A stretch of 64,000 bases of DNA from positions 224,001-288,000 of the forward strand of contig JAHQJS010000004.1 of the NCBI GenBank assembly GCA_019057385.1, in the 5' to 3' direction. Source of the stretch: Candidatus Borrarchaeum weybense. Lineage in GTDB: Archaea; Asgardarchaeota; Sifarchaeia; Borrarchaeales; Borrarchaeaceae. The translations under genes were made by a program, and so were the position numbers. The notes below the pieces were generated by a model that was given only the letters and a program-made list of their open reading frames with translations, did not search any database and was not told where the DNA came from. Shown piece after piece: positions 7,099-23,548 of the stretch (its first letter is position 1; each line of letters starts with the position of its first letter).

Positions 7099-7231
7099 AC
7101 TAAGACTTTTTACGCTAGCTTTCATCTCATCTTCAAAAAGAATCATTTAGATATTAACTTAATCGCTGTGTAAGCTGAAGAAAATACTAACTAAATCCTT
7201 GAATGTAAATTTAGAACCGGAGTTCAAAACT

Positions 7232-9568
7232 ATGCGTGGTTCTCTTTCAGGAATTGGAATTCTTAGTCTTTCACAAATTTTATTAGTCCTTTGGCGATAT
7301 GGACTTCTTCCCTTCTCTTTAATTTGGCCTATTCTTTTGAGTTGCTTAGCAGTTATTATACTGGTGGTTTCTGAATTGTTATGGCACGATGTAACAACCT
7401 TCGTTGAATTAATGACTACTTCTCATCGATTTGCACTTGGTTTCATTATTCTAATTGCCGCATTGGCGAATCTCACTTTAATAGGTCCTGGTTATATTCA
7501 TGCTGATGGTATTACTCATGCTTTTAAGGTGTGGTATCTTAGGAAAGCGTGGCTAAATGGAAGCTTTTATCCACTTTGGTGTCCCTATTGGTATTCAGGA
7601 TATCCATTTCTGGAATTTTATGGCCCTCTATTTTATGTTTTTGCTGCTTTACTTTCCTTGGGAACAGATTGGATGCTTGGCTCTAAACTGGCTCTGTATC
7701 TTGCATGTATAATGTCTCCCCTCGCCATGTATGGTCTTGTATATGTCATTACTGAGGATAGACTTGGAGGAATAGTGGGAGGGGTAGCCTATACCCTTAT
7801 CTACTATAAATTTCCTCTATTAACGAAGTATGGACATCTTGCTAGCAGTTTGGTGTTGATTTTTCTTCCTTTATTATTCTTATCTTTTGAATTAGCCATT
7901 AGAAAAGAAAAACAAGTGTATGCGATATTAGCAGGTTTTTGTTGGGCTGGGGTATTCCTTTCTCATCAAGGAGCCGGATATATGGTCTCTCTTTTGGTAT
8001 TTTTTTATCTTCTATTTTCCTGTGCTATTAAGTTCAAATTTGAAAATATCTACTTAATAGGTCGCATATGCTTAATTTCAACAGTCGTAGCGTTAGGTCT
8101 GTCTTCCTTCTTCATTATACCTTACTTTATAGATGGTATTGGAGCAAATACAAGAATCTTTGATTCACATTGGCTAGGATATCCTATATCTCTACCCTTA
8201 ATTCTGACAAGAGATTTTGTAAACGTTTATCAACCGTTTCCTGTATATATTGGGGATTCTATATTGGGAATAGCTTTTGCAGCGATATTTCTGCGTAGAA
8301 CTAGGTCAACCATCGTATATACTGCATTGTTGCTTTTTTCGTTCTTTCTTGTACTCGGATCAGAACTTCCATTCTATACTGCAATTCCTTTTATTGTCAG
8401 TCTTGAATATCCGTATCGATTCCTCATACTAGTTAGTTTTGTGGCATCAGTATTATCTGGCATTGCAATTTCATCAATAAAGAATATACAAAAACCATTT
8501 TCAGGGTATCTTATGAAACTTAAGTCGAATCCAAGAATTCAAAAAAGGGTAATCGTAATATTGATGGTCATTATAATCATTGATCTATGGCCAGGAACCT
8601 TAGTTTCCAAAAACAGACCTTTGGATTGGTTAGTTGATGATGAATGGTTAGGTGCCTATAATTGGCTTGATACACAGACTGGTTACCATAAAATCATGAG
8701 ATTTGGGAATTCTGGACCCAGTTATGTAGTTTCTTCTTCTATTATTGGAAACACATTCGACACCGCAGGCTACTTTAGACAATCTACGAATAAAGATTAT
8801 GGTGAGTTTACCTCCACATTTAAGGGAGAAATAAGATCATTGAATAATGCCCCTAAAAAAGGGCTTCTAACGCCTCTTCAACTTTTAGGTGTTAAATATG
8901 TGCTTTTAGATACTTCTAAAAATTATGCTACACATTTAGCAAAATCATCTGAATTAGAAGTAGTGCATACTTCCGGCAAGGTAACTATTTTGGAATATAG
9001 TGGATATACTTCCCCGATCATAATTTCTCAGTCTGCAGCGCTTGTTGGAGGCGAAAACGAAATCGATACTTTCTATGATTATGTAACAAATCCAGATTAT
9101 GATCCTTCTAAAATGATTTTTCTCAAAGAAGATCAGTATTATAACGACATTGAGACCCCTCTCCAATCTTTTGAGGACTCAATAGAGTATGACGCCAGTT
9201 TTATGTCACAAATTATTGATTTAGAGGTGAGAGAAGACATTATCTTGACAAATATATTTGTTTCTGCATCTTCTTTTGTATTTTTCAGTTTTAATTTCTT
9301 CCCTGGCTGGCATGCTTTAGTTGATGGAAAAGAAAGTAAAATCCTAATAGCGGAACCCTTTTTTATGTGTATATATCTTAACGAAGGCGGAACGCATAAT
9401 GTCTCGCTTAAGTACCAGCTTAATACACCTAAAACAGTAGGATTACTAATTACACTGAGTACATTATTTGTAGCACTCTTTGTTACGTTTTGGTCGTATA
9501 AACAGAAAATCAAAGAGATAATAGAACAGAGCTTATTGAGCAAATACAGAGGATGGAGAACTAAATGA
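7232..9568 (+). CDS. GT-C-like membrane protein (PTPS-related/YfhO-like), tandem paralog 2
   Basis: Colinear with paralog 1. ATG 7232 chosen because MRGSL aligns with MRGVL and both starts follow GGAGTTCA. Confidence 0.82.
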   Translation: MRGSLSGIGILSLSQILLVLWRYGLLPFSLIWPILLSCLAVIILVVSELLWHDVTTFVELMTTSHRFALGFIILIAALANLTLIGPGYIHADGITHAFKVWYLRKAWLNGSFYPLWCPYWYSGYPFLEFYGPLFYVFAALLSLGTDWMLGSKLALYLACIMSPLAMYGLVYVITEDRLGGIVGGVAYTLIYYKFPLLTKYGHLASSLVLIFLPLLFLSFELAIRKEKQVYAILAGFCWAGVFLSHQGAGYMVSLLVFFYLLFSCAIKFKFENIYLIGRICLISTVVALGLSSFFIIPYFIDGIGANTRIFDSHWLGYPISLPLILTRDFVNVYQPFPVYIGDSILGIAFAAIFLRRTRSTIVYTALLLFSFFLVLGSELPFYTAIPFIVSLEYPYRFLILVSFVASVLSGIAISSIKNIQKPFSGYLMKLKSNPRIQKRVIVILMVIIIIDLWPGTLVSKNRPLDWLVDDEWLGAYNWLDTQTGYHKIMRFGNSGPSYVVSSSIIGNTFDTAGYFRQSTNKDYGEFTSTFKGEIRSLNNAPKKGLLTPLQLLGVKYVLLDTSKNYATHLAKSSELEVVHTSGKVTILEYSGYTSPIIISQSAALVGGENEIDTFYDYVTNPDYDPSKMIFLKEDQYYNDIETPLQSFEDSIEYDASFMSQIIDLEVREDIILTNIFVSASSFVFFSFNFFPGWHALVDGKESKILIAEPFFMCIYLNEGGTHNVSLKYQLNTPKTVGLLITLSTLFVALFVTFWSYKQKIKEIIEQSLLSKYRGWRTK

Positions 9569-10644
9569 CCAAAGCACAAAAAAAAGTGTTAAAACTCCTT
9601 ACGCCAGGTTTTATTACACCGCATAAGGGGGTTCATTTAGTCTTTGACGCTATTGATGGGCTCAATGACGTGGAATATATTGTCGCAGGTTCAATTAGAA
9701 CTGATTCACGTGTTCATAAGACATACTTGACAAAAATAAAAGAAAATGCTCCTTGTAATGTGAAAATAATTGAAAAATTCTTTTCGAAAGAGGAGTTTCT
9801 TGAAATAATTGCAGATAGCGATATAGTTATTTTACCTTATTTAGATGTATCTCAAAGTGGCTCTGGAATTCTCCATTTATCATTAGGTCTTGGAAAGCCG
9901 ATTATTGCCTCAAAAATTGGAGAATTCGTAGAATTATTAAGAGGAAACGCTTTATTGGTCGATCCTTACGATAAAATTGCATTAAGAAACGCTATTCTTA
10001 AAATGAAGAATAGCAAATTGAAGAAGTTTTATGAATCTCGTACAAAAGAATTAGCCTCTAAAACATCATGGAGCAACATTGCTAATGAACATCTCAAAAT
10101 ATATCGTAATCTGCTAAAAACATATCATCCTTCACACATAGCGATAGTTAGTACCTTTGGGGAACGTTGTGGCATAGGCGAATATGCATCATTCTTGGCA
10201 AACTCGTTAGAAAATCAACAACTGAAAGTTCTGCGGATTAAACTTAAGAAGAACTGGAGTTTTAGCATCGCTTTGGTGAAAATTATTGATCGGTACCATC
10301 CCCAACTTGTGCATATACAATTTGAATATGGTTTATTCAAATGTTTTCCATTTCTCCAGATAGGCACTTCTATTTTACTCTTCTATTTCCTCTCAAAATT
10401 ATTTAACGTTAAAACAATAACAACAATGCACACTGTTTATAACCCTCATTATCTCTGGAACAAAAAATGGAAGAATATATTATCAAGGGTTGCAGGAACG
10501 TTTTTGCGAGTATTCCTTGTGAAATTAATAACCGTAATGTCAAATCGAATTATAGTACATACAAATGAATCTAAAAAGGCGCTTTCAAACGACAAGAAAA
10601 CGTTTGTAGTGCGTCACGGCACATTGATTAAAAGGCGCAAATAA
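9565..10644 (+). CDS. Circularly permuted GT4 glycosyltransferase
   Basis: Donor-domain motifs (GFITPHKG, ILPY..SQSGSG, GKPIIAS, SWSNIANEH) come before acceptor-domain motifs (IAIVSTFGERCGIGEY, VHIQFEYGLF, TTMHTV, IIVHT, VVRHG). Confidence 0.85.
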   Translation: MTKAQKKVLKLLTPGFITPHKGVHLVFDAIDGLNDVEYIVAGSIRTDSRVHKTYLTKIKENAPCNVKIIEKFFSKEEFLEIIADSDIVILPYLDVSQSGSGILHLSLGLGKPIIASKIGEFVELLRGNALLVDPYDKIALRNAILKMKNSKLKKFYESRTKELASKTSWSNIANEHLKIYRNLLKTYHPSHIAIVSTFGERCGIGEYASFLANSLENQQLKVLRIKLKKNWSFSIALVKIIDRYHPQLVHIQFEYGLFKCFPFLQIGTSILLFYFLSKLFNVKTITTMHTVYNPHYLWNKKWKNILSRVAGTFLRVFLVKLITVMSNRIIVHTNESKKALSNDKKTFVVRHGTLIKRRK

Positions 10645-10657
10645 GGTAGAGCGAGAA

Positions 10658-11542
10658 ATGGATGCTTCTATAGTTATTTCAACTTATGGGAGAGGACAAG
10701 ACGTTGTAGATTGTATTAACAGCCTCCTTAATCTCAACAAACATAATTTTGAGATTATTGTTATTGAGTCATCCCCCAACGTGTTAACAGCGCTTGATTT
10801 AAAAAAAAGATATAAGGATAATTTATTAGTAAGAATAACTCATTCTAAAATTCCCATAGGTCTGTCCAGAGCCAGAAATCTCGGCGTTCTCCTTGCAAAG
10901 AATGATATTGTGGTTTTTATCGATGACGATTGTATAGCCTGTCCTAATTGGCTTCAAAATCTTTTAAATGTATTTAATACTAAAAAAACAGGCATTGTTG
11001 GGGGTCGATCAATCCCGCTTTTCTTAACTGAACGCGTTCCTCGATGGTTAGATGATCGATTGACTCCAGCAATAGGAATTTCACATTTTTCAAATAAAAG
11101 GCAAAAAGTTGAATATGTACTTGGCTGCAATTTTGCAGTCCGAAAGGAATTATTCAATGAAATGAATTTGTTTAGAGAAGATTTAGGTCGTAGAGGAAAA
11201 CTTCTTCTATCAAATGAAGAGGTCGAGTTTTGTAAGAGAGTTAAGGAAGCAGGTTATCTTGTTATTTACACGCCCAAAGCTGTGGTGAGACATAAGGTAT
11301 ACCCTACAAGGTTGGACAGAAGTTACTTTTTCAAACGATTCTTCTATGGAGGTTTGAGTGAGGGGATAATGCATACTTTTGGCATTAGAAAATTGTTTTT
11401 CGTAGCGAAAGAATTGCTGAAAAACATAATATATTTCTTTAGAAATGCCAATATGTTTTCCTTGTGTTTAATTTTTGAAAAGTTAGGTCTATTTGTAAGC
11501 ATTCTCTATATACCTAAAAGCGGAGAATCTTATTCAGTCTAA
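10658..11542 (+). CDS. GT2 glycosyltransferase (AglE/AglG-like)
   Basis: SIVISTYGR, GLSRARNLG, FIDDD, GCNFAVR, LLSNEE. Confidence 0.9.
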   Translation: MDASIVISTYGRGQDVVDCINSLLNLNKHNFEIIVIESSPNVLTALDLKKRYKDNLLVRITHSKIPIGLSRARNLGVLLAKNDIVVFIDDDCIACPNWLQNLLNVFNTKKTGIVGGRSIPLFLTERVPRWLDDRLTPAIGISHFSNKRQKVEYVLGCNFAVRKELFNEMNLFREDLGRRGKLLLSNEEVEFCKRVKEAGYLVIYTPKAVVRHKVYPTRLDRSYFFKRFFYGGLSEGIMHTFGIRKLFFVAKELLKNIIYFFRNANMFSLCLIFEKLGLFVSILYIPKSGESYSV

Positions 11543-11589
11543 TTTCATAATGAACTACAAAAAAGAAGTCATTGGAGTTCAATTGGGTA

Positions 11590-12768
11590 ATGTCAATAAA
11601 AATAGATACAAGTAGAGAACTTGAGGAGATCCATCTTAGTCTAACTCGAATTCTCGACGAAAGGGATAGATTATTCCCAAAACACGATCCCCAAAATACA
11701 AAAGATGTGCGAAAGATCCTCAAGGCATATGCAAATGTTCTTAAAAGTATAGAAGTGCCAAACTGGGAGCCCGATAATAAACTTATAGACTCAGCGAAGA
11801 ATTTGACCCAAAAATGTGTTTTCATCTGTGGTTTCATGAAAAGTGGAACAACATTACTTTTAGAACTCTTGGATAACCATCCTGAACTTATTGTCATGCC
11901 TGGTGACTCAAATCTGATAAATTGGATAAATAATACGCTGAATACACCTTTAGAGGAGCGTCTAACAAATTGGGATGTGCACTGGATCTCTCGCCTTATC
12001 AATCCCACAGGTCAAAAACCATTCTGGATAATGGGTGAAAAAGTTCATCCATATTTGGAATTTCTTTACTATCTAAATTATTGGCTTGAAGATTTACCTT
12101 CTTCTGACACTAGCCCTTTTATTGCAGTTGTCTTAGCTTTTTATTGTGCAAATCCACAGCGTGCAACCGATCCTAAGTTTTGGGTTGAAAAAAACCCTAG
12201 GAATGAATTGAAAGTTGATCAGATCTTAAACTATTTTCCTTCTGCACGTTTCATTCACATTATACGTGATCCTCGCTCGAATATGGCTTCCTTGAAGCGA
12301 CGTTGCAAACTCCATAAATTGAATTGGGATGTAGAAGGTTATTCTTATGCAATCCAGAAATCAAATAAACTCGGATTTTTTTACCAAAAAAGACTTGGAA
12401 AAAGCAGGTATCATATTTTACGATATGAAGATTTAATAAAGAATCCAGAAATTGAGATGAAAACTATCGCTAATTTCTTAGGAATCAAAATTGACAACAA
12501 TCTGCTTTACCCTACAGTGAATGGTCTTCCCGCCAAATCAAATACAATGTTCAAAGATAGACAGATCCAAGGCAAAATTTTTGCCAACTTAAGCGAGAAA
12601 TGGCGAACTGAATTAGACCTTTCTGAGCAAAAGGAAATATATGCTATTTTATATCCTATAGCAAAACGTCTAGGTTATGATTGGAAACTTGGATCTATTA
12701 GTTGGGCTAATTATCTTTACTATTGCCAAGCTAGGATTAGATATCTTGCATCTCGAATGCTTAAATGA
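11590..12768 (+). CDS. PAPS-dependent sulfotransferase (Sulfotransfer_3-like)
   Basis: 5'-PSB motif GFMKSGTT, WVEKNP, 3'-PB motif HIIRDPR and RYEDL. Alternative TTG start at 11572. Confidence 0.88.
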   Translation: MSIKIDTSRELEEIHLSLTRILDERDRLFPKHDPQNTKDVRKILKAYANVLKSIEVPNWEPDNKLIDSAKNLTQKCVFICGFMKSGTTLLLELLDNHPELIVMPGDSNLINWINNTLNTPLEERLTNWDVHWISRLINPTGQKPFWIMGEKVHPYLEFLYYLNYWLEDLPSSDTSPFIAVVLAFYCANPQRATDPKFWVEKNPRNELKVDQILNYFPSARFIHIIRDPRSNMASLKRRCKLHKLNWDVEGYSYAIQKSNKLGFFYQKRLGKSRYHILRYEDLIKNPEIEMKTIANFLGIKIDNNLLYPTVNGLPAKSNTMFKDRQIQGKIFANLSEKWRTELDLSEQKEIYAILYPIAKRLGYDWKLGSISWANYLYYCQARIRYLASRMLK

Positions 12769-13000
12769 TTTAGAAACTAAAAATAACGACTTTGGAAATA
12801 TCTTGAATCACGATTGCTTTAGTTATCGCAAAAAAGCCAAACCAGATTTATAATTAACTTCATAGCCCTTTCCATGTTTCCTGATAAAAGCTTTTTTGGT
12901 CTATTAAGAAAATCATAACGGTCTTAATTTCAAAGCGATAGACATAAATTCATAACTTAATTGAATTTACCCCAAATATCAAAGTTCTTGTGGGCTGATT

Positions 13001-13849
13001 TTGGGCGAAAAAAAGATCGCAATATATGAACCCGATCGTACAGTAAAACAAGGTTATATTACACTCTGGAAAGAAAATTTCCAGGATTTAAAAGAAAACT
13101 TATGGCTAATCCGTCAATTTTTTTTCAGAGAATTTAAAGGGCAGTATAGTCAATCTCTATTGGGTATTATATGGGCTTTTATACTGCCTCTTGTAACACT
13201 AGCAATTTTTATTCTTCTAAGAAGTTCAGGGTTATTTAATGTTGGAGTTATAGAGGTGCCTTATGTAATCTATGCGCTCCTAGGATTATCTTTCTGGCAG
13301 TTATTTGTCACAGGGATTGTACAGAGTACAAATTCTTTGGTTAGTGCGGGATCTATGATTAAAAAGGTTAATTTTCCTCGGGAAACCTTGGTCTTTGCAT
13401 CATTAGGAAATGCACTATTCTCATTTGCTCTTCAGATGGGCATTGTTTTTATCTTGTTTGGTATTTATGGATTTTTTCCTCACTGGAAATTTTTGCTGTT
13501 TCCATTAATGATAATCCCGATATTATTATTAACTTGTGGATTAGGCTTCATTTTTTCGTTAATAAATGGTATAATACGAGATTTAGGAAGAATTCTTGGC
13601 CTTGGATTAACTTTTTTGCTGTTTATCACTCCTATCGCGTATGAACTTCCTGAAATGGGATTTTTGGCAACATTGGCCCGCATCAATCCCTTGTATTATC
13701 TTTCCATAGCACCTAGGGATCTTGCACTAACAGGAACATTAAGCCATCCGCTGGGCTACTTTATTTCTTGTGGTCTTTCTATTTTCGTCTTTTTCTATTG
13801 CTGGATGACGTTTCATTTGACAGAAACCAGAATTCCAGAGAGGCTCTAG
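13001..13849 (+). CDS. wzm: ABC-2 polysaccharide export permease
   Basis: REFKGQYSQSLLGIIWAFILPL, IKKVNFPRE, RDL, TPIAY and INPL motifs; adjacent to the ATPase. Confidence 0.92.
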   Translation: MGEKKIAIYEPDRTVKQGYITLWKENFQDLKENLWLIRQFFFREFKGQYSQSLLGIIWAFILPLVTLAIFILLRSSGLFNVGVIEVPYVIYALLGLSFWQLFVTGIVQSTNSLVSAGSMIKKVNFPRETLVFASLGNALFSFALQMGIVFILFGIYGFFPHWKFLLFPLMIIPILLLTCGLGFIFSLINGIIRDLGRILGLGLTFLLFITPIAYELPEMGFLATLARINPLYYLSIAPRDLALTGTLSHPLGYFISCGLSIFVFFYCWMTFHLTETRIPERL

Positions 13850-13853
13850 TAAT

Positions 13854-15152
13854 ATGTCTTTAAAAAATACAGATGTTAGGTCGTTAAACGATAACGAAGT
13901 CGTTATCAAAGTCGAAAACGTATCAAAAAAATTTTCTAAGTCACTTAGGCGATCTATGGTTTATGGCTTGAAAGATATCCTTAGAAATACTTTTAAAATG
14001 CACTCAAAATCTGACAGACTTAGAAAAAGTGAATTTTGGGCAGTAAAGGACATCTCATTTGAATTAAAAAAAAGCGAATGTCTTGGAATAGTTGGCCCTA
14101 ATGGTTCTGGAAAGACAACACTATTGTCTATGTTAAATGGCATTTACATGCCAGATCAAGGTAAGATTACAGTAAAAGGAAAAGTAGGTGCATTAATAGC
14201 AGTTGGAGCTGGTTTTCATCCTATGTTATCAGGGCGGGAGAACATCTATATTAACGGTGCAGTATTAGGAATGGGCAAAGAAGAAATTAACAAGAAATTT
14301 GATTCTATAGTTGAATTTGCTGATATTGGTGATTTTCTCGATATGCCTGTGAAGCATTATAGTTCTGGCATGTATGTGAGACTTGGATTTGCGGTGGCAA
14401 TTCATTGTGAGCCAGATATACTTCTAGTTGACGAAATCTTGTCAGTAGGAGATATCAAATTTAGAGATAAGTCACAACGAAAATTCATGGAATTGGTTGA
14501 AAATGGTACTTCAGTCGTTCTTGTTTCTCATAATCTTAATACCGTGAGACGAGTTTGTGATAAGGCACTTATGTTAAACAAAGGAGAAGTTATTGATTAT
14601 GGAGAGGTTGAAGATGTTATCAATAATTATAGTCTGCTAATGAACAGAGAGGAACTAAAAACTCTCAAAGAAAAAAGTGATCTCATTCCCCTGCAAAGGA
14701 AAGGGGAAACAGGAAGGATAGAACTTTTTAATTGCAAAGTTTATGAAGAAGGAGGAAATCCGGAATTTAATGAGATCGAATTTGGAAAAAATATTATAAT
14801 TGAGTTTGAGTATAAATGTTATGAGGAACTAAAAAATCCAGAATTTCGTGTAATTATCTCTTCTGCTTTTAATAGAAAATCGATTGCAAAGATAAGTTCT
14901 TATTCTACGTCCAATTTACCATCTTTCTTCAGTGATACCGGGAAAATTAGATTTACAATTACAAATAATAGACTGCATCACGGAGTTTATCTTATTAGTC
15001 TGGCAGTAGTGAGAGGCTCCTTTGGCCATTTATTTACTTTTAACAATTGTCAACAATTTCTCATTAAGAATCCGGATCCTAGAGTATATCGTGTAGAATA
15101 TTCGAATTTATTATTTGTTCTTGATTTTACCGTGGATCATATTAGCGAATGA
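13854..15152 (+). CDS. wzt: ABC polysaccharide export ATPase with C-terminal Wzt_C carbohydrate-binding domain
   Basis: FWAVKDISF, Walker A GPNGSGKTT, YSSGMYVRLGF, LLVDE, VSH and a beta-rich C-terminal extension. Confidence 0.93.
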   Translation: MSLKNTDVRSLNDNEVVIKVENVSKKFSKSLRRSMVYGLKDILRNTFKMHSKSDRLRKSEFWAVKDISFELKKSECLGIVGPNGSGKTTLLSMLNGIYMPDQGKITVKGKVGALIAVGAGFHPMLSGRENIYINGAVLGMGKEEINKKFDSIVEFADIGDFLDMPVKHYSSGMYVRLGFAVAIHCEPDILLVDEILSVGDIKFRDKSQRKFMELVENGTSVVLVSHNLNTVRRVCDKALMLNKGEVIDYGEVEDVINNYSLLMNREELKTLKEKSDLIPLQRKGETGRIELFNCKVYEEGGNPEFNEIEFGKNIIIEFEYKCYEELKNPEFRVIISSAFNRKSIAKISSYSTSNLPSFFSDTGKIRFTITNNRLHHGVYLISLAVVRGSFGHLFTFNNCQQFLIKNPDPRVYRVEYSNLLFVLDFTVDHISE

Positions 15153-15298
15153 ATCAATTTGATAGACATTAACACACTTGAAATCGTATCCGCAAATGTT
15201 CGATAGTGATTAGTATAAGCACATCTAAAATATCAAGTATTGGATAAAATTTATCTTCTGTTAATCTGTGAGCTTAGGACATTATTGGGGTAAATTAG

Positions 15299-16297
15299 AT
15301 GTCAAATATGAAGGATCTCTTACCTAATGTAGTTGTATTAGGTGCCCAGAAATGTGGGACAACTTGGTTATTCAAAAATTTACAAAATCATCCAGACATT
15401 TTAATACCACGAAAAGAGATCCATTACTTCACTAGACATCATTTAAAAGGGATTGAGTGGTATTCGAATTATTACAAAGACGCCTATAATGGGCAGAAAA
15501 TTCTAATGGACATAGCAACAAACTATCTTTATGATCATGATTATTTTAGACGATATATGCTTACTTATCACAGAAATATTGCAAAAGAGATTTACAATAC
15601 ACTAAATGAACCAAAATTGATATTAATGGTCAGAGATCCAATAGATCGAGCATTTTCGCAATATATCAACTTATTACAAGAATCAATTACTTATGGTGCG
15701 ATATATAGTGGTAAAATTAAACCAATTGATTCTCCAAAAGCTAGAAAAATGGGGTTTAAATATCCTAAACACTGGCCGTTAGGTTTTAAATTACAAGACC
15801 GTGATGCTTTTTTTTATGTGCCAGATACGTTTGAGAAAGCAATAATTACTCATCCTTATCTAATTACGCGTGGCTTTTTTGCTACTTATGTGAAAAAATA
15901 TTTAGAGTATTTTACGAAAGATCAATTTTTATTTTTAGAATTTGATATGCTAAAAAAGAATCCAAAAGGGCTTCTAAATTCTGTCTACGATTTTTTGGGA
16001 ATAGATAGGTATTATAATGAGGAATTTCTATACAAGAGAATCAATCCAGCAAGTAAAAGAAAAATTGTTAGAAATTGGAGTTTAGAATCATATATAGTAC
16101 GGATTCTGAGAGAAGAAACTATTCCAAGCACATTTAAAATCCCTTTAAAAATTCTATCGAAATTGAATTTGGCTTTAAGTAAGAAAGAAAAACCTAAACC
16201 AAAAAAAGAAACGATAAAAATACTGTCTAGATGGTTTAAGCCACATAATCTAGAATTGGAAAGAATTACTGGCCTAAATTTAAGTCATTGGAAATGA
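15299..16297 (+). CDS. Sulfotransferase (Sulfotransfer_1; heparan-sulfate-sulfotransferase-like motif pattern)
   Basis: GAQKCGTT, HPDI...KEIHYF, RDPIDRAFSQY, and a C-terminal FKPHNLEL...W. Confidence 0.9.
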   Translation: MSNMKDLLPNVVVLGAQKCGTTWLFKNLQNHPDILIPRKEIHYFTRHHLKGIEWYSNYYKDAYNGQKILMDIATNYLYDHDYFRRYMLTYHRNIAKEIYNTLNEPKLILMVRDPIDRAFSQYINLLQESITYGAIYSGKIKPIDSPKARKMGFKYPKHWPLGFKLQDRDAFFYVPDTFEKAIITHPYLITRGFFATYVKKYLEYFTKDQFLFLEFDMLKKNPKGLLNSVYDFLGIDRYYNEEFLYKRINPASKRKIVRNWSLESYIVRILREETIPSTFKIPLKILSKLNLALSKKEKPKPKKETIKILSRWFKPHNLELERITGLNLSHWK

Positions 16298-16411
16298 AAA
16301 GACCCAATTATTGTTTACTTCATCAGAAAGAAAAGTGAAGAAATGTTCAGTAGCATTCTGGTTATATAGGGCAAATCTTACAGATACTCGATCGAAAAGG
16401 AAAGATAATGA

Positions 16412-17335
16412 ATGTTGCCAAATTTCTTAATCATAGGTGCACAGAGATCTGCTACCACTTTCGTACATAAATGTTTAGAAGATCATCCCGATATTTTTAT
16501 GCCTCCAAAAGAAAAGGCCTTTTTCGAGAATCCATATTTCTTTCAAAAAGATTTTAATGAATTTGAAAAATTATTTGAAAACTTATCTCAAAAAGCAATT
16601 GGAATCAAACGTCCTAACTATTTAGGTAAAATAGAATGCCCAGAAAGAATCTATCGATATATTCCAAATGCTAAACTTATAGTGATACTTCGAAATCCTG
16701 TAGAGAGAGCGATATCCGCTTATTTTCACCAGATGAAATCAGGTTTTATTCCAATAAAGCCTCTGGAAAAAGGATTACTCAATGTAATTAACCGAAAATA
16801 CTACAAATTGTATCCTAGATCCAAAGAAATTATTGAGTTCGGTTTTTATTATAAGCATTTGATGCATTACTTACATTATTTTAAAAAAGATCAATTATTA
16901 GTAATTATCTATCGTGATCTCAAGGCGAATCCACTTAAGACAATTCAACATATTTTCAGGTTTCTTAAAGTTGATGAGAATTTCATTCCAAAAACATTAC
17001 AAAGCAAACAAAATCCAGGTGTGTACTCGCTCACAAGGCTCAGACTACTCAATATCCGTCATCGATTTGTTTCAATTTATAATGAAGACAAAACCGCAAG
17101 ATATGGTAAGAAACAAAAAACAGTCTTAGATAGACTAATTGATAAACTAATTCTTTTAATTGATAGAAAATTACTCTTTCAAATTTGCAAAAACTCGAGG
17201 TTAGAGTTAAGTGCAAAACTTTCTAGAAGCCTATTCAAGATATATGAAGAAGATATCAATGGGCTGGAAGTTTTTTTAGGTAGAAAATTAACATATTGGA
17301 AGTCGTACTCGTTAATGCAAGATGTCAACAAGTGA
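16412..17335 (+). CDS. Sulfotransferase (Sulfotransfer_1)
   Basis: LPNFLIIGAQRSATT, HPDIF..KE, KRPNY, LRNPVERAISAY. Confidence 0.9.
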   Translation: MLPNFLIIGAQRSATTFVHKCLEDHPDIFMPPKEKAFFENPYFFQKDFNEFEKLFENLSQKAIGIKRPNYLGKIECPERIYRYIPNAKLIVILRNPVERAISAYFHQMKSGFIPIKPLEKGLLNVINRKYYKLYPRSKEIIEFGFYYKHLMHYLHYFKKDQLLVIIYRDLKANPLKTIQHIFRFLKVDENFIPKTLQSKQNPGVYSLTRLRLLNIRHRFVSIYNEDKTARYGKKQKTVLDRLIDKLILLIDRKLLFQICKNSRLELSAKLSRSLFKIYEEDINGLEVFLGRKLTYWKSYSLMQDVNK

Positions 17336-17455
17336 CACCTGTATTTTAACAGAATGAAGCAAAGGATTTTATTACATCTTTCAATTGTTATACCGAAGAT
17401 ATTTATGGTGATATAAGGGAACAACTTAGATGTTTAAAGGATTTCTATTTGTTAT

Positions 17456-18331
17456 TTGCGAAATCTAAGTTATTGGAAGAGGAAAATGGAGATCAATAGA
17501 TTTCTTTGTCAGATTAACAAGCATATTGTTAGAACACAAGTTAAGAACAAGAAGTCTAAAAAAATTACAATTGTATTAGACCGACTCACTTCATTTCCTT
17601 GGAAAGGCTTATACACTAAATTGAATCCGGAAAGAAAATTTATTATTAGAGTGGATGATTACCCTCGCTTAGATCACAAATTCGACAATTTTAAAAGATT
17701 TCATTTACTTACAAAGAAATATAAAATAGATTACTTGCTGTGTGTTACTCCATTTGAGAAGTTTTATGGTAGAGAAATTGACTTTCTCAATTCTGAATAT
17801 TTTGATTTTTTATTAAAAGAACACATAGAATTCGGGTTACATGGGTTCACGCATCAGAGAAGAAAAGATAAGAGCGAATTATTACTAATGGGAATTCAGA
17901 AACTGAGAAAAAGAGTTTTAAAAATATTGAACATGTTTTCTGAATATTCTAATTTCAGAAAAGTATTCATTCCGCCCTTTAACCAGATAGATTATGATAC
18001 ATTTATTGAATTATCAAGACATTTTGAAATAGTGACTGGTGGTCCTGAGTCATTATATTTATTTGGCGCTTATCCACCAATGATACTAAATGGTTGCGCT
18101 TATATGCCCTCTTATTACGGTTTTTATGGTCGTTCAGAGCGAATCAATGAATTTCTAAAAAATAGGACATATTTCAATAATCTCATGCCCATCACGTTAC
18201 ATTGGGCATGGGAATGCAAAGATAATTACGAAAACTTGAATAATCTCCTAAAAAACTTTAGTAGGAAAACGAGAACTTGGAAAAACTTCATAGAAACTCT
18301 AACAGACCATAAACATCTTAAGAGGGCGTAG
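17456..18331 (+). CDS. Polysaccharide deacetylase (CE4/NodB-like, DUF2334-type)
   Basis: IIRVDDYP, HGFTH metal ligands, FIPPFN, TLHW. ATG 17486 is an alternative start. Confidence 0.78.
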   Translation: MRNLSYWKRKMEINRFLCQINKHIVRTQVKNKKSKKITIVLDRLTSFPWKGLYTKLNPERKFIIRVDDYPRLDHKFDNFKRFHLLTKKYKIDYLLCVTPFEKFYGREIDFLNSEYFDFLLKEHIEFGLHGFTHQRRKDKSELLLMGIQKLRKRVLKILNMFSEYSNFRKVFIPPFNQIDYDTFIELSRHFEIVTGGPESLYLFGAYPPMILNGCAYMPSYYGFYGRSERINEFLKNRTYFNNLMPITLHWAWECKDNYENLNNLLKNFSRKTRTWKNFIETLTDHKHLKRA

Positions 18332-18484
18332 TCAAAAAATAGCGAAGATAATGCTATATATGAATACATCATTCTTGTCGTCGATTGAGATCATTATTAA
18401 CAGCTAACTGCCGTTTATATTTATGACTAAGATTTACTTGAATCAAGACTAATTAGGTTAGAATGATGAAAGGGGAATATCTTA

Positions 18485-19726
18485 TTGGACAAGATCTCTA
18501 TTAAATCTCTATGCTGGCTGTATCAAATATACTATGGTGGTGTCGAGAATAGAGCTTACAATATGGCAGCCTTTCTATCACGATTTGCGAATGTAGAATT
18601 CCTTTTTGCAAGACCATTTATTTCCGATAATACTTTTCAGAGATTTTTTCCAAAAAAAGTTAAAATTAGAGTACATAAGATAGCTCCGTTTCTATTAAAA
18701 TTTGCTGATATAGAATTTTTGTTTGCAAGACCAATTTATTCCAATACAAGTTATCAGAATAAAGCCAATCTCAGATACAGACCTATACAAATCTATTTTA
18801 ATCCCTATAAGGTTTATAGAAAAGATTTCTGGGAAGACTTCTTTATAAAAAAGGCGACAATGTATCTAAATAGAGAAAAACAAAATATAGATCTAGTAAT
18901 AGGACATGGTTTAAATGCAATCCCTGGCATTAACGTGGGGCTACCTACTGTAACTACAATGCATGGAGTAGATCGCTGGATATCAAATCCGCCAAAACTG
19001 AGAAAAATTCTTTTAAGAAAGTCGAATAAGATAATAGCGATAACAAAAAGGGTACAATCACAGTTGATAGAAAAAGGGGTGGATGAAAAAAAAATATCAG
19101 TCATTTATAATGGCGTTGACTTTAATGATATCGATAATACAAAACTTAAATCAAAAGATTTCTTGGAAAAATATGGTATAAATCCTGATAAAAGAATAAT
19201 TCTTTCAGTCCATAATTTCAATAAAGTAAAAAACACGATGAGAATCATACAGTCTTTCATTAATATAAAAAGAGGTTATGATGACTATCAACTGGTATTT
19301 ATTGGTGACGGCCCTGAAAAGCGGTATTACGTTAACTATATCAAGAGAAAAAAGATTAAAGATGTTTACTTCATAGGAAAACTTTTCAAAACAGATCTCT
19401 ACCCCTTTTATAAGGTTGCCGATGTGTTCCTTATGCCGAGTTTAAGAGAAAGCTGGGGTATCGTTTTTTTTGAAGCAATGGCAGCAAAATGTGCAGTAAT
19501 TCTTAGTAAAAATTGTGGTGTTACAGAAATCATAGAAAATAACAAAGATGGGATAATTGTCGATCCAAATAGCCAGCCAGAGATTGATAATGCATTAAAA
19601 ACTCTGATAGATGATGATGAGTTTAAAAAACAGTTAGGAGAAAATGGATACAAACTTGCTCGGACATTGGACTGGGAGAATCAAGGAAAAATATTATGGA
19701 AGGAATTGCAAGAGTTTTTTAACTAA
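18485..19726 (+). CDS. GT4 glycosyltransferase with internal 39-aa duplication
   Basis: YYGGVE, TTMHG, VIYNGVD, PSLRESWGIVFFEAMA. Confidence 0.92.
   Translation: MDKISIKSLCWLYQIYYGGVENRAYNMAAFLSRFANVEFLFARPFISDNTFQRFFPKKVKIRVHKIAPFLLKFADIEFLFARPIYSNTSYQNKANLRYRPIQIYFNPYKVYRKDFWEDFFIKKATMYLNREKQNIDLVIGHGLNAIPGINVGLPTVTTMHGVDRWISNPPKLRKILLRKSNKIIAITKRVQSQLIEKGVDEKKISVIYNGVDFNDIDNTKLKSKDFLEKYGINPDKRIILSVHNFNKVKNTMRIIQSFINIKRGYDDYQLVFIGDGPEKRYYVNYIKRKKIKDVYFIGKLFKTDLYPFYKVADVFLMPSLRESWGIVFFEAMAAKCAVILSKNCGVTEIIENNKDGIIVDPNSQPEIDNALKTLIDDDEFKKQLGENGYKLARTLDWENQGKILWKELQEFFN
18563..18759 (+). repeat. Diverged in-frame tandem duplication, period 117 bp
   Basis: MAAFLSRFANVEFLFARPFIS (starts 18563) versus IAPFLLKFADIEFLFARPIYS (starts 18680). 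Confidence 0.85.
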
Positions 19727-19821
19727 TTCGAGAAAGTTCACAAACAAATCAATACTTAAATATTTGAAGGAATTGGAGATAGATTGAAGGCTTGTTTACA
19801 AAATGTAGAAGGTAATGGTGA

Positions 19822-20775
19822 TATCCTATTCTCTCAATTATTGTCCCAACATTTAATCGAGCAAAGTATCTGAAGGCCACTCTTGAATCTTTACTTCAGC
19901 AAAAATATAAAGATTTCGAAGTTTTTATCGTCGACAACGGACCTTCAACAGACAAAACGAAGGAAATTGTAGAATACTCTGCTAAGAACGATAATCGTAT
20001 TCACTATCTTTCAATAACTCAGAAAGGGTGTATTTTTGCACGAAATATGGGCATTGAAAATGCAAAAGGAGAAATATTTTTAACTCTTGACGATGACGTT
20101 GAATTCTTAGAGCCAGATACTCTACAAAAACTCGTAAATACTTTTAAGTCAGATAATAAGATCGGAATTGTGGGATCTATTGAACTCAGGGAACCCAACC
20201 AAAGAGTTCCAAAAGGTCCAGATCCGCTTCCTGCTGAGACCGGTCGGATTTCTCAAAATGGTGAGTTCAATACGGCCTTTGGATGGATTGAAGGTCATGG
20301 AATTACTGAAGTAGATCACGTAAGGAGTGCATTCATGGCTATTCGAATGGATCTATTTAAATTAGTTGGCAGCTTTGATGAAATATATGATGCAATGGGG
20401 CTGGGATTTCGTTACGAAACTGACATTTGCATGAAAATTAAGAAAATTGGGTTCAAAGTCGTCGTGAATCCTGAAATTAAGATATGGCACAAAGTAGCAA
20501 AGCGTTCTCACGGATTTGAGAGAGGAAAAGGCTTTAAATACTTTTATTACGCGAATAGAAATCATATTTTTTTCATGAGACGGTTTTTTTGGAAGAAAAA
20601 CTCTTTTGAAAAACTTATAATGGATATTCTTAGAGGCACAAGGAGATGTCCAGGCATAAAACAAGGAATCATCAGAATGAGAAATGATTTCAATTTTATG
20701 TGGCCTATTTACATCCTTGCATCAATATCAGGGAAAATTCTAGGTTATTTGAGGTACTCAAAATATGGCTCTTAG
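19822..20775 (+). CDS. GT2 glycosyltransferase; start non-canonical or frameshifted
   Basis: The frame is open from 19822 and encodes the GT2 N-terminus (ILSIIVPTFNR...IVDNG...ARNMG) that the track ORF (20047) lacks; LDDD motif follows. Confidence 0.85.
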   Translation, partial: YPILSIIVPTFNRAKYLKATLESLLQQKYKDFEVFIVDNGPSTDKTKEIVEYSAKNDNRIHYLSITQKGCIFARNMGIENAKGEIFLTLDDDVEFLEPDTLQKLVNTFKSDNKIGIVGSIELREPNQRVPKGPDPLPAETGRISQNGEFNTAFGWIEGHGITEVDHVRSAFMAIRMDLFKLVGSFDEIYDAMGLGFRYETDICMKIKKIGFKVVVNPEIKIWHKVAKRSHGFERGKGFKYFYYANRNHIFFMRRFFWKKNSFEKLIMDILRGTRRCPGIKQGIIRMRNDFNFMWPIYILASISGKILGYLRYSKYGS

Positions 20776-22117
20776 AAAAATCTTGATTACTTGCGATAAT
20801 TATTACCCCGTCCCAGGCGGAATTCAGCAATATGTCCGAGGACTCGGATTAGAATTAAGTAAACAGGGGTACAAAATTAATATCTTGACAAGTTCGGTTG
20901 AAGGTCAACGCAAAAGAGAAAAAATGCCAGAAGGACATGTCATTAGAACATCACTAATGAACAATGCGATATGGCATCCAGAAATTGTTTTATCAAAATG
21001 GAAACAACTTGCATCGCTAATTAGTTCAATTAAACCAGATATAGTACTTGCTAACAATCATGCATCAGTAGCAATTATCAAAGCGGCGAAATCTTTAGGA
21101 ATTCCAGTTATCCATTGCTGTCGGGGGTGGGGGTTACTTTGTCCTTTAAAGGTTAGGTTGATTAAACCAGAAACTGATGAACTTTGTTTCAATGAACGAT
21201 CATTTGAAAATTGTTCAGTATGTGCTAAGAGAAAAGGGAAGCTTTTTGAGTATAGTGATAAACTAGAACATTCAAAACAGGAGCTTTTCTATGGAAATCA
21301 GATTTCTTTGAAACGAAAATTGAAATTGTTATTAAATTGCGTTTCTCCTATTCCCATTCCTAAACTAAAAGCGATGCTTTCTTTAAAGGCGCTCAAATCC
21401 TTGATAGATCGCTATGACCAGTATCAATTAATTCTAGAATCTGCAGACAGAGTTATATCTCTTTCAAAAATGTATTGTTCCTTTTTTGATTCTAAAAAAG
21501 CAGAAGCAATACCTACAGGCATAGATGAAGAATTTTATCATCCAGTTGATGAAACTTCATTTCTAAATAAACTCAATATAATAGAACCATATGTTCTTGT
21601 TACGAGCCGTATTCATCATAATAAAGGTCAAAAATGGGCTGTTGAGGCGCTGAAATATCTATCTACTGATATAAAACTAGTCCTAGCTGGCAAACTTAAA
21701 AACAATATACACACCAGAGAGATTGTTGAAACAATAAAGCAGTTAGATCTTGAGGACCGGGTTGTTTTTACCGATTTTCTAATGCCGAAAGAGTTGAAAC
21801 AATTATATTCAGGGGCTATCGCAACAATCGTTCCTTCAATATGGGCTGAGCCTTACGGACAAGTTACTATTGAAGCAATGGCTTGTGCTTGCCCAGTGAT
21901 TATTACAGAGAATTCTGGTTCTGCTGAAGCCGTGGATGACGGAGTTGATGGTTATATAGTTCCACGAAAAGATTCAAAGGCAATTGCTTGTGCAATAAAG
22001 ATGATACAGAAGAAACGTGATGAGTTCGGACAGAAAGCACGTGAAAAAATCCTGAAAAAATATGCTTGGCCAATTTTATCAAAAAAAATAATCGGGATTT
22101 TTCGCGAAGTATATTGA
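20765..22117 (+). CDS. GT4 glycosyltransferase with Cys-rich insert
   Basis: YYPVPGG, LCP...C...CSVC, SRIHHNKG, PSIWAEPYGQVTIEAMA. Confidence 0.92.
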   Translation: MALRKILITCDNYYPVPGGIQQYVRGLGLELSKQGYKINILTSSVEGQRKREKMPEGHVIRTSLMNNAIWHPEIVLSKWKQLASLISSIKPDIVLANNHASVAIIKAAKSLGIPVIHCCRGWGLLCPLKVRLIKPETDELCFNERSFENCSVCAKRKGKLFEYSDKLEHSKQELFYGNQISLKRKLKLLLNCVSPIPIPKLKAMLSLKALKSLIDRYDQYQLILESADRVISLSKMYCSFFDSKKAEAIPTGIDEEFYHPVDETSFLNKLNIIEPYVLVTSRIHHNKGQKWAVEALKYLSTDIKLVLAGKLKNNIHTREIVETIKQLDLEDRVVFTDFLMPKELKQLYSGAIATIVPSIWAEPYGQVTIEAMACACPVIITENSGSAEAVDDGVDGYIVPRKDSKAIACAIKMIQKKRDEFGQKAREKILKKYAWPILSKKIIGIFREVY

Positions 22118-22120
22118 AAA

Positions 22121-23533
22121 GTGATCATGATAGCGAAGTATTTTCGTTTAAAAATTTTGAAGAGAAGGAAAGTAAGAATGAGCAAAATCATTAGGGTTTT
22201 TCTAAAAAGAATAGATCGGATTGTACAGACTTTTTGTTTAAAAAGACGCGAACTACATACGATCCTTTTCATAATTACTGTTAATTTCTTGTATTTCCTC
22301 ATTGTGTTTTTAAGTTATTTCTTAATATTAGATGGGAGGTGGGCATTTTACGGAAACCCGCTTGCATGGCTTGCTGAATGGATTGATTATAATACAATTT
22401 TAAGAAAAGCAGTTTCAAATCAGTTTACTTCATTGAGGTTTCCTATCTTAGGTTCATTATATCTATATTTGGTTGGACGCGCTGCTCTTATCAGCAGCAC
22501 CTTGGTTTCTTCAGTTCTTTTACGTCCAATTTTCTATTTATATATGGGTCTATTTAATGTACTTTTTGAGATTATTACCGTTATTTTAACAATGAGGCTT
22601 GTTTCTCGCTATTTTGGACAGATTTATGCCTCTAATATCACATTCATCTTCATTTTATTACCAATAGTATGGTGGACAACGATTTGTCGATGGGATCTGC
22701 TTCCCTTAGCTCTTACAGTTTGTACTATATATTTTGCAGTGGAAAATAAGGCTTGGTATGCGTGGTCCTCGCTTACTATTGCCGTTTTGGCGAAATTATA
22801 TCCAATAATTTTCGCAATTCCCTTATTGTTTTATTACTTCGAAAAAAACGGTGCTAAAAAAACGTTAATTTATGTATCGAGCATGATCATCGTGACAGTG
22901 CTTATTTATATTCCATTTTACTTAATTTACGGATGGAATATTTTTAATGGAGTTTCTCAGAATATAATTGTAAATGCTTCTCGATCTTCAATTTGGTATT
23001 GGATTTCTATCTTATGCGGAGAAAAAGAAAAAGCTTTATTATTTTCAGTCTCAGGTTATATTCAAGCAGCGGTTATTTTCTCATATGTTCTTTTGGATTA
23101 TTTTCATGAAAGAAATCAAGAGAACCCACTAACTGTAGATAAGGCCCTACTAAAAAGGTGCTCAATTGTTATTTTACTTTTTTTGGTGACCTTTAAGTTT
23201 AGTAAACCACAAGGCATAATGTATGGATTGCCATTAGTAATATTTTTCAGTAATAGCTTTAAAAAGTTCTTTTATTTTCTTATATGGCTTATAACTTTGC
23301 ATGTAGTTGCGTATCCGAGAATTATGATTTACGCATATTTGAGGGTTAAACCTTCGCTTACAATATATATTCTTATTGGGATCGCATTCCTTACTCTTTA
23401 TACAGCAGTTGTTGCTCTAATTCTTTTTAACAAAAATCTATTTGAAAATGACATTCAAATTTTGAGTGAAAGAGATTTCATAATAGAGTTACACAATTAT
23501 GTAAAAAAGATTAAGAAATTTCTAATGAAATGA
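22121..23533 (+). CDS. GT-C membrane glycosyltransferase (GT87/DUF2029-like)
   Basis: Multi-TM protein with RWDLLP, AKLYPII and FSKPQ. The exact start is uncertain. Confidence 0.72.
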   Translation: MIMIAKYFRLKILKRRKVRMSKIIRVFLKRIDRIVQTFCLKRRELHTILFIITVNFLYFLIVFLSYFLILDGRWAFYGNPLAWLAEWIDYNTILRKAVSNQFTSLRFPILGSLYLYLVGRAALISSTLVSSVLLRPIFYLYMGLFNVLFEIITVILTMRLVSRYFGQIYASNITFIFILLPIVWWTTICRWDLLPLALTVCTIYFAVENKAWYAWSSLTIAVLAKLYPIIFAIPLLFYYFEKNGAKKTLIYVSSMIIVTVLIYIPFYLIYGWNIFNGVSQNIIVNASRSSIWYWISILCGEKEKALLFSVSGYIQAAVIFSYVLLDYFHERNQENPLTVDKALLKRCSIVILLFLVTFKFSKPQGIMYGLPLVIFFSNSFKKFFYFLIWLITLHVVAYPRIMIYAYLRVKPSLTIYILIGIAFLTLYTAVVALILFNKNLFENDIQILSERDFIIELHNYVKKIKKFLMK

Positions 23534-23548
23534 AGAAGAACCTAAAGG

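Follow-up and report, generated by a model that had tools for sequence, protein, structure and literature searches.

A 64-kb stretch of the genome of Candidatus Borrarchaeum weybense, here called the window (positions 224001 to 288000 of contig C4 in a 4.18-Mb, 8-contig genome), carries what is apparently a complete, lineage-conserved gene cluster for a sulfated glycan, built from bacterial-type parts. Unless another contig is named, coordinates are positions in the window. From 11572 to 20775, all on the + strand, open reading frames (ORFs) and Pfam matches define, in order, genes for a sulfotransferase (ST1), the permease and ATPase of an ATP-binding cassette (ABC) exporter (wzm and wzt), two more sulfotransferases (ST2 and ST3), a DUF2334 protein, and glycosyltransferases (GTs) of families GT4 and GT2; this bears out the gene content, with the DUF2334 protein as the deacetylase, that a first-pass annotation had read from the sequence. 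We consider it likely that the cluster belongs to the Borrarchaeum lineage and serves to make a glycan, either surface bound or secreted, that is sulfated and partly de-N-acetylated and would be exported by the ABC-transporter route, with modifying genes acquired from bacteria. From their sequence relationships, these modifying genes appear to be of bacterial derivation and not specifically related to the animal N-deacetylase/N-sulfotransferase (NDST). The genes are as follows.

11572..12768, + strand: ST1, a TPST/CurM-like sulfotransferase dependent on 3'-phosphoadenosine-5'-phosphosulfate (PAPS), with an N-terminal extension of ~80 aa; Sulfotransfer_3, 97.7 bits
13001..13849, + strand: Wzm, ABC-2 permease of the glycan exporter; ABC2_membrane (PF01061), 48 bits; NCBIfam Wzm/RfbD-like
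13854..15152, + strand: Wzt, ATPase with a C-terminal carbohydrate-binding domain; ABC_tran (PF00005), 81 bits; Wzt_C (PF14524); NCBIfam TagH/Wzt-like
15299..16297, + strand: ST2, PAPS sulfotransferase of the Glu-base heparan-sulfotransferase fold, with a 60-aa insert; Sulfotransfer_1, 70 bits
16412..17335, + strand: ST3, Glu-base PAPS sulfotransferase immediately 5' of the deacetylase gene; Sulfotransfer_1 and Sulfotransfer_3 (Pfam)
17456..18331, + strand: DUF2334 protein, cytoplasmic metal-dependent deacetylase of the CE4 fold; PF10096, 34 bits
18485..19726, + strand: GT4a, retaining GT4 glycosyltransferase, BshA/PglJ-like; Pfam; best NCBIfam match BshA, 136.6 bits, under its cut-off
19828..20775 by homology (20047-20775 in the ORF list), + strand: GT2b, GT2 glycosyltransferase; tblastn to a 318-aa ortholog

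The three sulfotransferases

All three sulfotransferases score above their Pfam cut-offs and contain the 5'-phosphosulfate-binding (5'-PSB) and 3'-phosphate-binding (3'-PB) motifs and a catalytic base. The motifs quoted for them in the first-pass annotation (GxxKxGTT, KExxF, and RxPxxRAxSxY) were found in ST2, which has GAQKCGTT, KEIHYF, and RDPIDRAFSQY, but only in part in the other two: ST3 has GAQRSATT, with Arg at the PSB Lys position, followed by KEKAFF and RNPVERAISAY, and ST1 has GFMKSGTT and a looser 3'-PB motif, RDPRSNMAS. TPSTs likewise have Arg at the PSB Lys position. The best PDB matches of ST1 were TPST1/2 and the CurM sulfotransferase. When PDB chains were searched with phmmer, ST2 matched HS3ST3A1 (5.5e-18), 3rnl, a bacterial structural-genomics sulfotransferase (1e-17), and the NST domain of NDST1 (1.2e-10); for ST3, the corresponding values were 5e-15, 1e-23, and 1e-13. 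In alignments to HS3ST3A1 and 3rnl, E34 of ST3 falls on the catalytic Glu and R94 to S102 on the 3'-PB motif. ST2 and ST3 are members of the same Glu-base HS3ST/NST fold group, as had been proposed.

The nearest relatives of ST2 and ST3 are prokaryotic, with up to 61% identity. ST3 belongs to a large family (424 representative clusters at E<1e-30 and 14,059 at E<1e-10) and is 50-57% identical to proteins of Desulfosudaceae, Phycisphaeraceae, and Anaerolineae; its named relatives, at 42-57% identity, come from bacteria of many phyla, together with one Thorarchaeota protein. In a maximum-likelihood tree, phyla were freely mixed, and ST3 grouped weakly with sequences from a metagenome-assembled genome, Thorarchaeota, Anaerolineae, and metagenomes. 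When the phmmer E-values for PDB chains are set against those of the representative search (the tree was built without animal NDST or HS3ST), the animal enzymes are more distant from ST3 than all 150 among the matches listed. The phylogenetic kinship to NDST that the shared motifs had suggested was not borne out, ST3 having bacterial nearest relatives in a tree that mixes phyla; the pattern fits horizontal spread and not an Asgard-to-eukaryote lineage. Members of the ST3 family are also found fused to GT2, GT4, methyltransferase, and CE4 domains, and these fusions show the family, judged by its domain partners, to act on glycans. A search for longer fused relatives of ST3 recovered methyltransferase, tetratricopeptide-repeat (TPR), hexapeptide, and oxidoreductase fusions, none with a deacetylase.

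The DUF2334 protein

When the translation of 17456-18331 was compared with Pfam by hmmscan at E<=0.01, PF10096 was the sole match, and neither HSNSD (PF12062) nor Polysacc_deac_1 (PF01522) was found. The likely true start is an ATG ~10 codons into the frame, as in the 281-aa database form. Across 25 homologs, R65-V-D67-D68, H129-G-x-T-H133, E141, and T247-L-H249-W are invariant, and D67, D68, H129, H133, and H249 make up the Asp-Asp, His-x3-His, and His pattern of CE4 enzymes. Their counterparts in NDST1 (D319, D320, H389, H393, and H529) have been demonstrated by mutagenesis (PMC10864358).

An AlphaFold model of the protein (pLDDT 82.8, pTM 0.83) gave 26 Foldseek matches at E<=1e-3, almost all of them CE4-type. 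In an exhaustive structural alignment, the top Z scores were obtained for 3rxz of Mycobacterium smegmatis (17.9), HP0310/PgdA of Helicobacter pylori (3qbu, 17.4), 1z7a (16.0), and Salmonella ArnD (8t0j, 15.4). For 3rxz, HP0310, and ArnD, the alignments extend over 209-216 residues and bring the same metal and acid/base residues into register; the DUF2334 protein differs from them in its Pfam family (DUF2334, not Polysacc_deac_1) and is only 11-13% identical, and their substrates, peptidoglycan and lipid-linked 4-deoxy-4-formamido-arabinose (Ara4FN), are different. NDST1 (9f6z; Z 12.9, rank 23) and Agd3 of family CE18 (Z 12.8) both fall below the bacterial CE4-like enzymes (15-18), so NDST1 and Agd3 are not the CE4-type enzymes that the fold resembles most. 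The CE4-like deacetylase of the first-pass annotation is thus upheld by a complete CE4/NDST-type catalytic set and a CE4 fold, though its Pfam family is DUF2334; the specific kinship to NDST is not, given the missing HSNSD match and a structure nearer to bacterial CE4-like enzymes.

A hydrophobic N terminus is missing from all four modifying enzymes (ST1, ST2, ST3, and the DUF2334 protein). The nearest relatives of the DUF2334 protein are Elusimicrobiota and Clostridium proteins (33-36% identity), and no protein-level relative was detectable in 36 other Asgard genomes. Its distant homologs, like the homologs of ST3, are all located in polysaccharide clusters. The model and the conserved residues suggest that the protein is probably catalytically active in the cytoplasm as a CE4-fold hydrolase and that it does not resemble NDST in particular.

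The exporter and its association with ST1

The exporter combines an ABC-2 permease, an ATPase, and a Wzt-type C-terminal binding domain (Wzt_C, residues 285-392, 41.4 bits against a cut-off of 30.4), and on this combination it is assigned to Wzm/Wzt; the NCBIfam equivalog cut-offs were not reached. A paralogous ST1-wzm-wzt trio lies on the minus strand of another contig (C6:81123-85179), with ST1 61% and wzm 75% identical and wzt matching at an E value of 1e-123. This second trio adjoins GT4 genes and is without ST2, ST3, or DUF2334. One distant ST1-like gene of an Asgard archaeon also abuts a wzt gene. Because ST1, wzm, and wzt recur as a paralogous trio, gene order suggests that ST1 belongs functionally with the exporter, and ST2, ST3, and the DUF2334 protein would then be cluster-specific modifiers. 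In bacteria, the Wzt_C domain recognizes the capped end of the chain; a capping role for ST1 is one that we only infer. Another sulfotransferase gene (C6:88336-89253) is found near the C6 trio, the second sulfotransferase-linked ABC exporter locus of the genome.

The host and its supply of PAPS

The first-pass annotation had remarked that such a cluster would matter especially in an Asgard lineage, and the host is indeed an Asgard archaeon. Its genome contains an archaeal small-subunit (SSU)-large-subunit rRNA operon and two eukaryote-like actin genes (455 bits against Pfam Actin), one of them on the window's own contig; the match of the DUF2334 protein in Ca. Borrarchaeum yapensis, a member of the same genus, is 82% identical, and the NCBI taxonomy places Borrarchaeum in the kingdom Promethearchaeati (Asgard). 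The SSU rRNA match (C5:332567-335232) spans 2666 bases against a 1478-position model, and the 16S gene therefore carries ~1.2 kb of inserted sequence, as one or more introns or insertions.

Absence of PAPS synthesis from the genome had been named as grounds for abandoning a sulfation pathway, and both sat and cysC are present. They lie in an operon on one strand of C6 (347461-350826) that consists of sat (PUA_2 plus ATP-sulfurylase, about 300 bits), a DHH-family phosphoesterase gene, a gene for a 195-aa sulfotransferase, and cysC (adenosine-5'-phosphosulfate kinase, 201 bits). Because DHH/NrnA-type enzymes are able to hydrolyze 3'-phosphoadenosine-5'-phosphate (pAp), the operon looks like a dedicated sulfation module, in which the by-product of the sulfotransferases may be recycled by the DHH protein, as a pAp phosphatase.

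ST3-DUF2334 adjacency and the question of N-sulfation

The first-pass annotation had proposed a split NDST-like route, in which the DUF2334 protein would de-N-acetylate N-acetylhexosamine (HexNAc), ST3 (or ST2) would N-sulfate the amine, and the other sulfotransferases would O-sulfate the product, giving a glycosaminoglycan-like polymer that contains N-sulfoglucosamine (GlcNS). We regard this as unlikely. Gene adjacency speaks for it: ST3 and DUF2334, in the window separate ORFs 120 nt apart and not fused, are immediate neighbors on six contigs (the window and five others), all of one lineage. Sediments of the sulfate-methane transition zone are among the sources of Borrarchaeum-like contigs (SMTZ1_10004110). 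The B. yapensis locus is syntenic, with the same order from the permuted GT4 gene to the YYY membrane protein gene at 57-97% identity; a Joint Genome Institute contig (P0003, 73%) has the order ST-DUF2334-GT4-GT2; and on two metagenome contigs with an ST3 87% identical to that of the window, DUF2334 lies beside ST3. The most diverged products relative to B. yapensis are ST1 (64%), GT4a (57%), and the YYY protein (57%), against 82-97% for neighboring genes, and these three appear to be diversifying between species.

Outside this lineage, the adjacency was not found. No sulfotransferase gene was found within 10 kb of DUF2334 at 12 bacterial loci, which are exopolysaccharide (EPS) clusters, often with GT4 and methyltransferase genes. 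Among 18 ST3-family loci (15 in reference genomes and 3 on other contigs), a CE4 or DUF2334 gene was found only at a locus where the two domains are fused, and 17 of the 18 were without one. At 36 metagenome loci of at least 8 kb, DUF2334 was present only at two Borrarchaeum-like ones, and one other locus has a CE4 gene ~9 kb away. Of the 151 genomes sampled across the phylum, 54 contain Sulfotransfer_1 genes and 61 contain DUF2334, and the two families lie within 5 kb of each other only in the host and B. yapensis, both of this genus; in three other genomes they are 11-20 kb apart. The conservation that the first-pass annotation had set as a check therefore holds on five further contigs of the lineage but fails at the 12 bacterial DUF2334 loci and ~50 informative ST3-family loci.

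Other evidence also bears on the split route. The DD/HxxxH/H set of the DUF2334 protein is the same as that of NDST1, but in structural alignment NDST1 and Agd3 are no closer to it than many other CE4 enzymes. The Glu-base fold of ST2 and ST3 is also that of the NST domain, but N- and O-sulfotransferases within this fold group are not separable by any sequence feature. Chemical analysis has revealed N-sulfated hexosamine exopolymers in bacteria, namely in Pontiella, where the enzyme was not assigned (PMC7356697). Finally, one bacterial protein, P0127, joins the two kinds of domain in one chain. This 518-aa protein is encoded at L023:10001-11557 (a contig of Logan SRR23882333), a single sequence on a single contig, within a bacterial EPS cluster that includes Bac_transf, Wzy_C, flippase, DegT, and glycosyltransferase genes. 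Its N-terminal Polysacc_deac_1 domain has intact TFDD, HTYAH, RPPY, and LFHD motifs and a pneumococcal peptidoglycan GlcNAc deacetylase as its best PDB match (2e-26), and the sulfotransferase domain at its C terminus shares 46-47% identity with ST3. The domain order is that of NDST, and there is no signal peptide. As a possible prokaryotic N-deacetylase/N-sulfotransferase, P0127 is the strongest candidate. However, its sulfotransferase domain is not sister to ST3 in the tree, and since other members of the ST3 family carry GT2, GT4, or methyltransferase domains, the partner in a fusion does not define the chemistry. The split route is possible, with a low probability, but is not supported by distribution, phylogeny, or structure.

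No close relatives of P0127 were found in reference genomes. A protein-atlas lead to cyanobacterial clusters with Polysacc_deac_1 and Sulfotransfer_1 could not be confirmed: Nostoc NIES-4103 and Leptolyngbya Heron Island J had no co-located deacetylase and sulfotransferase matches, and when 201 cyanobacterial genomes were searched with P0127, the two domains were matched only separately. The long cyanobacterial frames inspected with Pfam comprised one GH18-CE4-GT2 fusion and two TPR-sulfotransferase fusions; two further long-frame CE4 matches (G286 and G276) had no sulfotransferase match by phmmer. The TPR-repeat-sulfotransferase fusions, of 628 and 860 aa, are adjacent in one cyanobacterial locus, L064 (G324:C6:18579-23145).

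An Asgard origin of NDST was rejected as unsupported, the closest homologs being bacterial and the distribution in the phylum patchy.

Proposed pathway

Gene identities, catalytic motifs, the deacetylase fold, the PAPS genes, and synteny are the findings from which we propose the following pathway for the preferred reading, export of a sulfated, partly de-N-acetylated glycan. On the cytoplasmic side of the membrane, the GT2 and GT4 enzymes would assemble a chain that contains HexNAc and is attached to a lipid carrier; GT4a, from its BshA/PglJ likeness, is possibly HexNAc transferring. The soluble DUF2334/CE4-type metal hydrolase would then strip acyl groups, most likely N-acetyl, and the three soluble PAPS-dependent sulfotransferases would sulfate the chain in the cytoplasm with PAPS from the C6 sat-cysC operon. 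A terminal or export-related sulfate may be the contribution of ST1, whose gene accompanies wzm-wzt. Wzm/Wzt, via the sugar-binding domain, would export the finished chain. The order of these steps, the acceptor sugars, and the sulfated positions are those that we infer.

Several observations weigh against this pathway. The genes for an initiating phosphoglycosyl transferase and for AglB lie outside the island, on C5, C6, and C8. Intergenic gaps of 110-230 nt mean that spacing does not imply co-transcription. The fold of the deacetylase does not fix which group is removed, because O-acetyl esterases and a deformylase (ArnD, Z 15.4) belong to the CE4 fold as well. The GT2b gene could indicate a pathway impaired in this strain, or an assembly indel: residues 4-318 of its ortholog align by tblastn in one frame from 19828, this frame lacks an ATG, GTG, or TTG upstream of 20047, and the GTG start of the B. 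yapensis ortholog is here one base out of frame (a 1-nt indel within 19817-19830). The alternatives are a 5' frameshift, an assembly error, or an unusual start codon.

On a different reading, the target of the cluster would be an N-linked or other protein-linked oligosaccharide, like the sulfated tetrasaccharide of Halobacterium salinarum, and Wzm/Wzt would act as a flippase for the lipid-linked oligosaccharide. The only proven archaeal glycan sulfotransferases do act on a dolichol-linked N-glycan (PMC11980604), but in the characterized bacterial systems a Wzt with Wzt_C exports capped polymers. AglB is present in the genome, but neither it nor the AglH-like genes share a contig with the cluster. 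The island encodes many membrane enzymes of the GT-C type (PMT_2, YfhO, PTPS_related, and YYY), which use lipid-linked donors outside the cell, but it also has a separate gene for a Wzx-like flippase (55562-57136). On balance, we find a protein-linked product quite unlikely.

Flanking genes

The full co-oriented run extends from 7199 to 25267 and is longer than previously described. It is part of a glycosylation island of ~60 kb, with GT2, GT4, and GT-C genes and the Wzx-like flippase gene, that occupies most of the 64 kb. No tRNA genes and no Rfam family matches were found in the window. The genes on either side of the cluster within the run are as follows.

9565..10644, + strand: GT4-type glycosyltransferase with swapped (permuted) domain order; Pfam; B. 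yapensis ortholog 97% identical
10658..11542, + strand: GT2a, GT2 glycosyltransferase; Glycos_transf_2, 80.8 bits; 95% identical to its ortholog
20765..22117, + strand: GT4b, GT4 glycosyltransferase; Pfam; ortholog 75% identical
22121..23533, + strand: 470-aa multi-pass membrane protein of no known family; hydrophobic sequence
23549..25267, + strand: large membrane protein with a C-terminal chlor_Arch_YYY domain; TIGR03662, 53.9 bits; ortholog 57% identical

The YYY-domain protein is, from its sequence, a candidate outer-face glycan-handling enzyme. The gene for the 470-aa protein is inserted between those for GT4b and the YYY-domain protein; its product had no Pfam or NCBIfam match and no counterpart at the B. 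yapensis locus.

Relation to known systems and significance

The cluster most resembles known systems in parts. As in ABC-dependent assembly of the Escherichia coli O9a type, in which WbdD is the terminator, there is a wzm-wzt pair with Wzt_C and there are cytoplasmic GT2/GT4 enzymes, and ST1 stands beside the exporter and is duplicated with it, much as chain terminators adjoin wzt. The Borrarchaeum system differs in its archaeal host, in having next to the exporter a sulfotransferase and not a kinase/methyltransferase, with putative sulfate capping, and in that no initiating transferase or ligase was identified in the island. Animal NDST, a fusion of HSNSD (PF12062) to a Sulfotransfer_1 NST domain (PDB 8ccy and 9f6z), likewise has a metal-dependent (beta/alpha)7-type deacetylase with DD/HxxxH/H, paired with a Glu-base PAPS sulfotransferase having 5'-PSB and 3'-PB motifs. 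In Borrarchaeum, by contrast, the genes are separate and ordered sulfotransferase then deacetylase (the NDST order is found in P0127), HSNSD is not matched, the enzymes are cytoplasmic and not Golgi luminal, and N-sulfation is only hypothetical; the sulfotransferases also have much greater similarity to prokaryotic proteins, with identities of up to 61%, than to NST (E value of 1e-13). VNG1056C and VNG1057C of H. salinarum are, as described (PMC11980604), archaeal PAPS-type sulfotransferases in a glycosylation cluster, with several enzymes for distinct positions. Their described differences are an AglB-anchored N-glycan, O-sulfation of uronic acids, and a cluster without Wzm/Wzt or a deacetylase.

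Sulfated glycans of archaea are known, and the first sulfotransferases responsible were identified in Halobacterium in 2025 (PMC11980604). A full-text literature search that paired Asgard with sulfotransferase returned no relevant paper. Since the modifying genes look bacterial in origin, a vertical Asgard-eukaryote link in glycosaminoglycan synthesis is not supported. It is doubtful that the DUF2334 protein and ST3 form a split prokaryotic counterpart of NDST, making N-sulfoglucosamine in an exported archaeal polymer; if they did, this pair, together with P0127, would be the first natural N-deacetylase/N-sulfotransferase pair outside animals, and the DUF2334-ST3 and P0127 enzymes would supply those missing for bacterial N-sulfated exopolymers. 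Microbial heparin work uses engineered or artificial NDSTs and is limited by poor expression of NDST in bacteria (PMC13353177); in practice, the cluster is of value for its deacetylase and sulfotransferase candidates, which are prokaryotic, soluble, and cytoplasmic. The surface glycans of Asgard archaea are almost unstudied, and the cluster offers a concrete, clonable example in which every part is represented, from the glycosyltransferases, the deacetylase, and the three sulfotransferases to the exporter and the PAPS operon.

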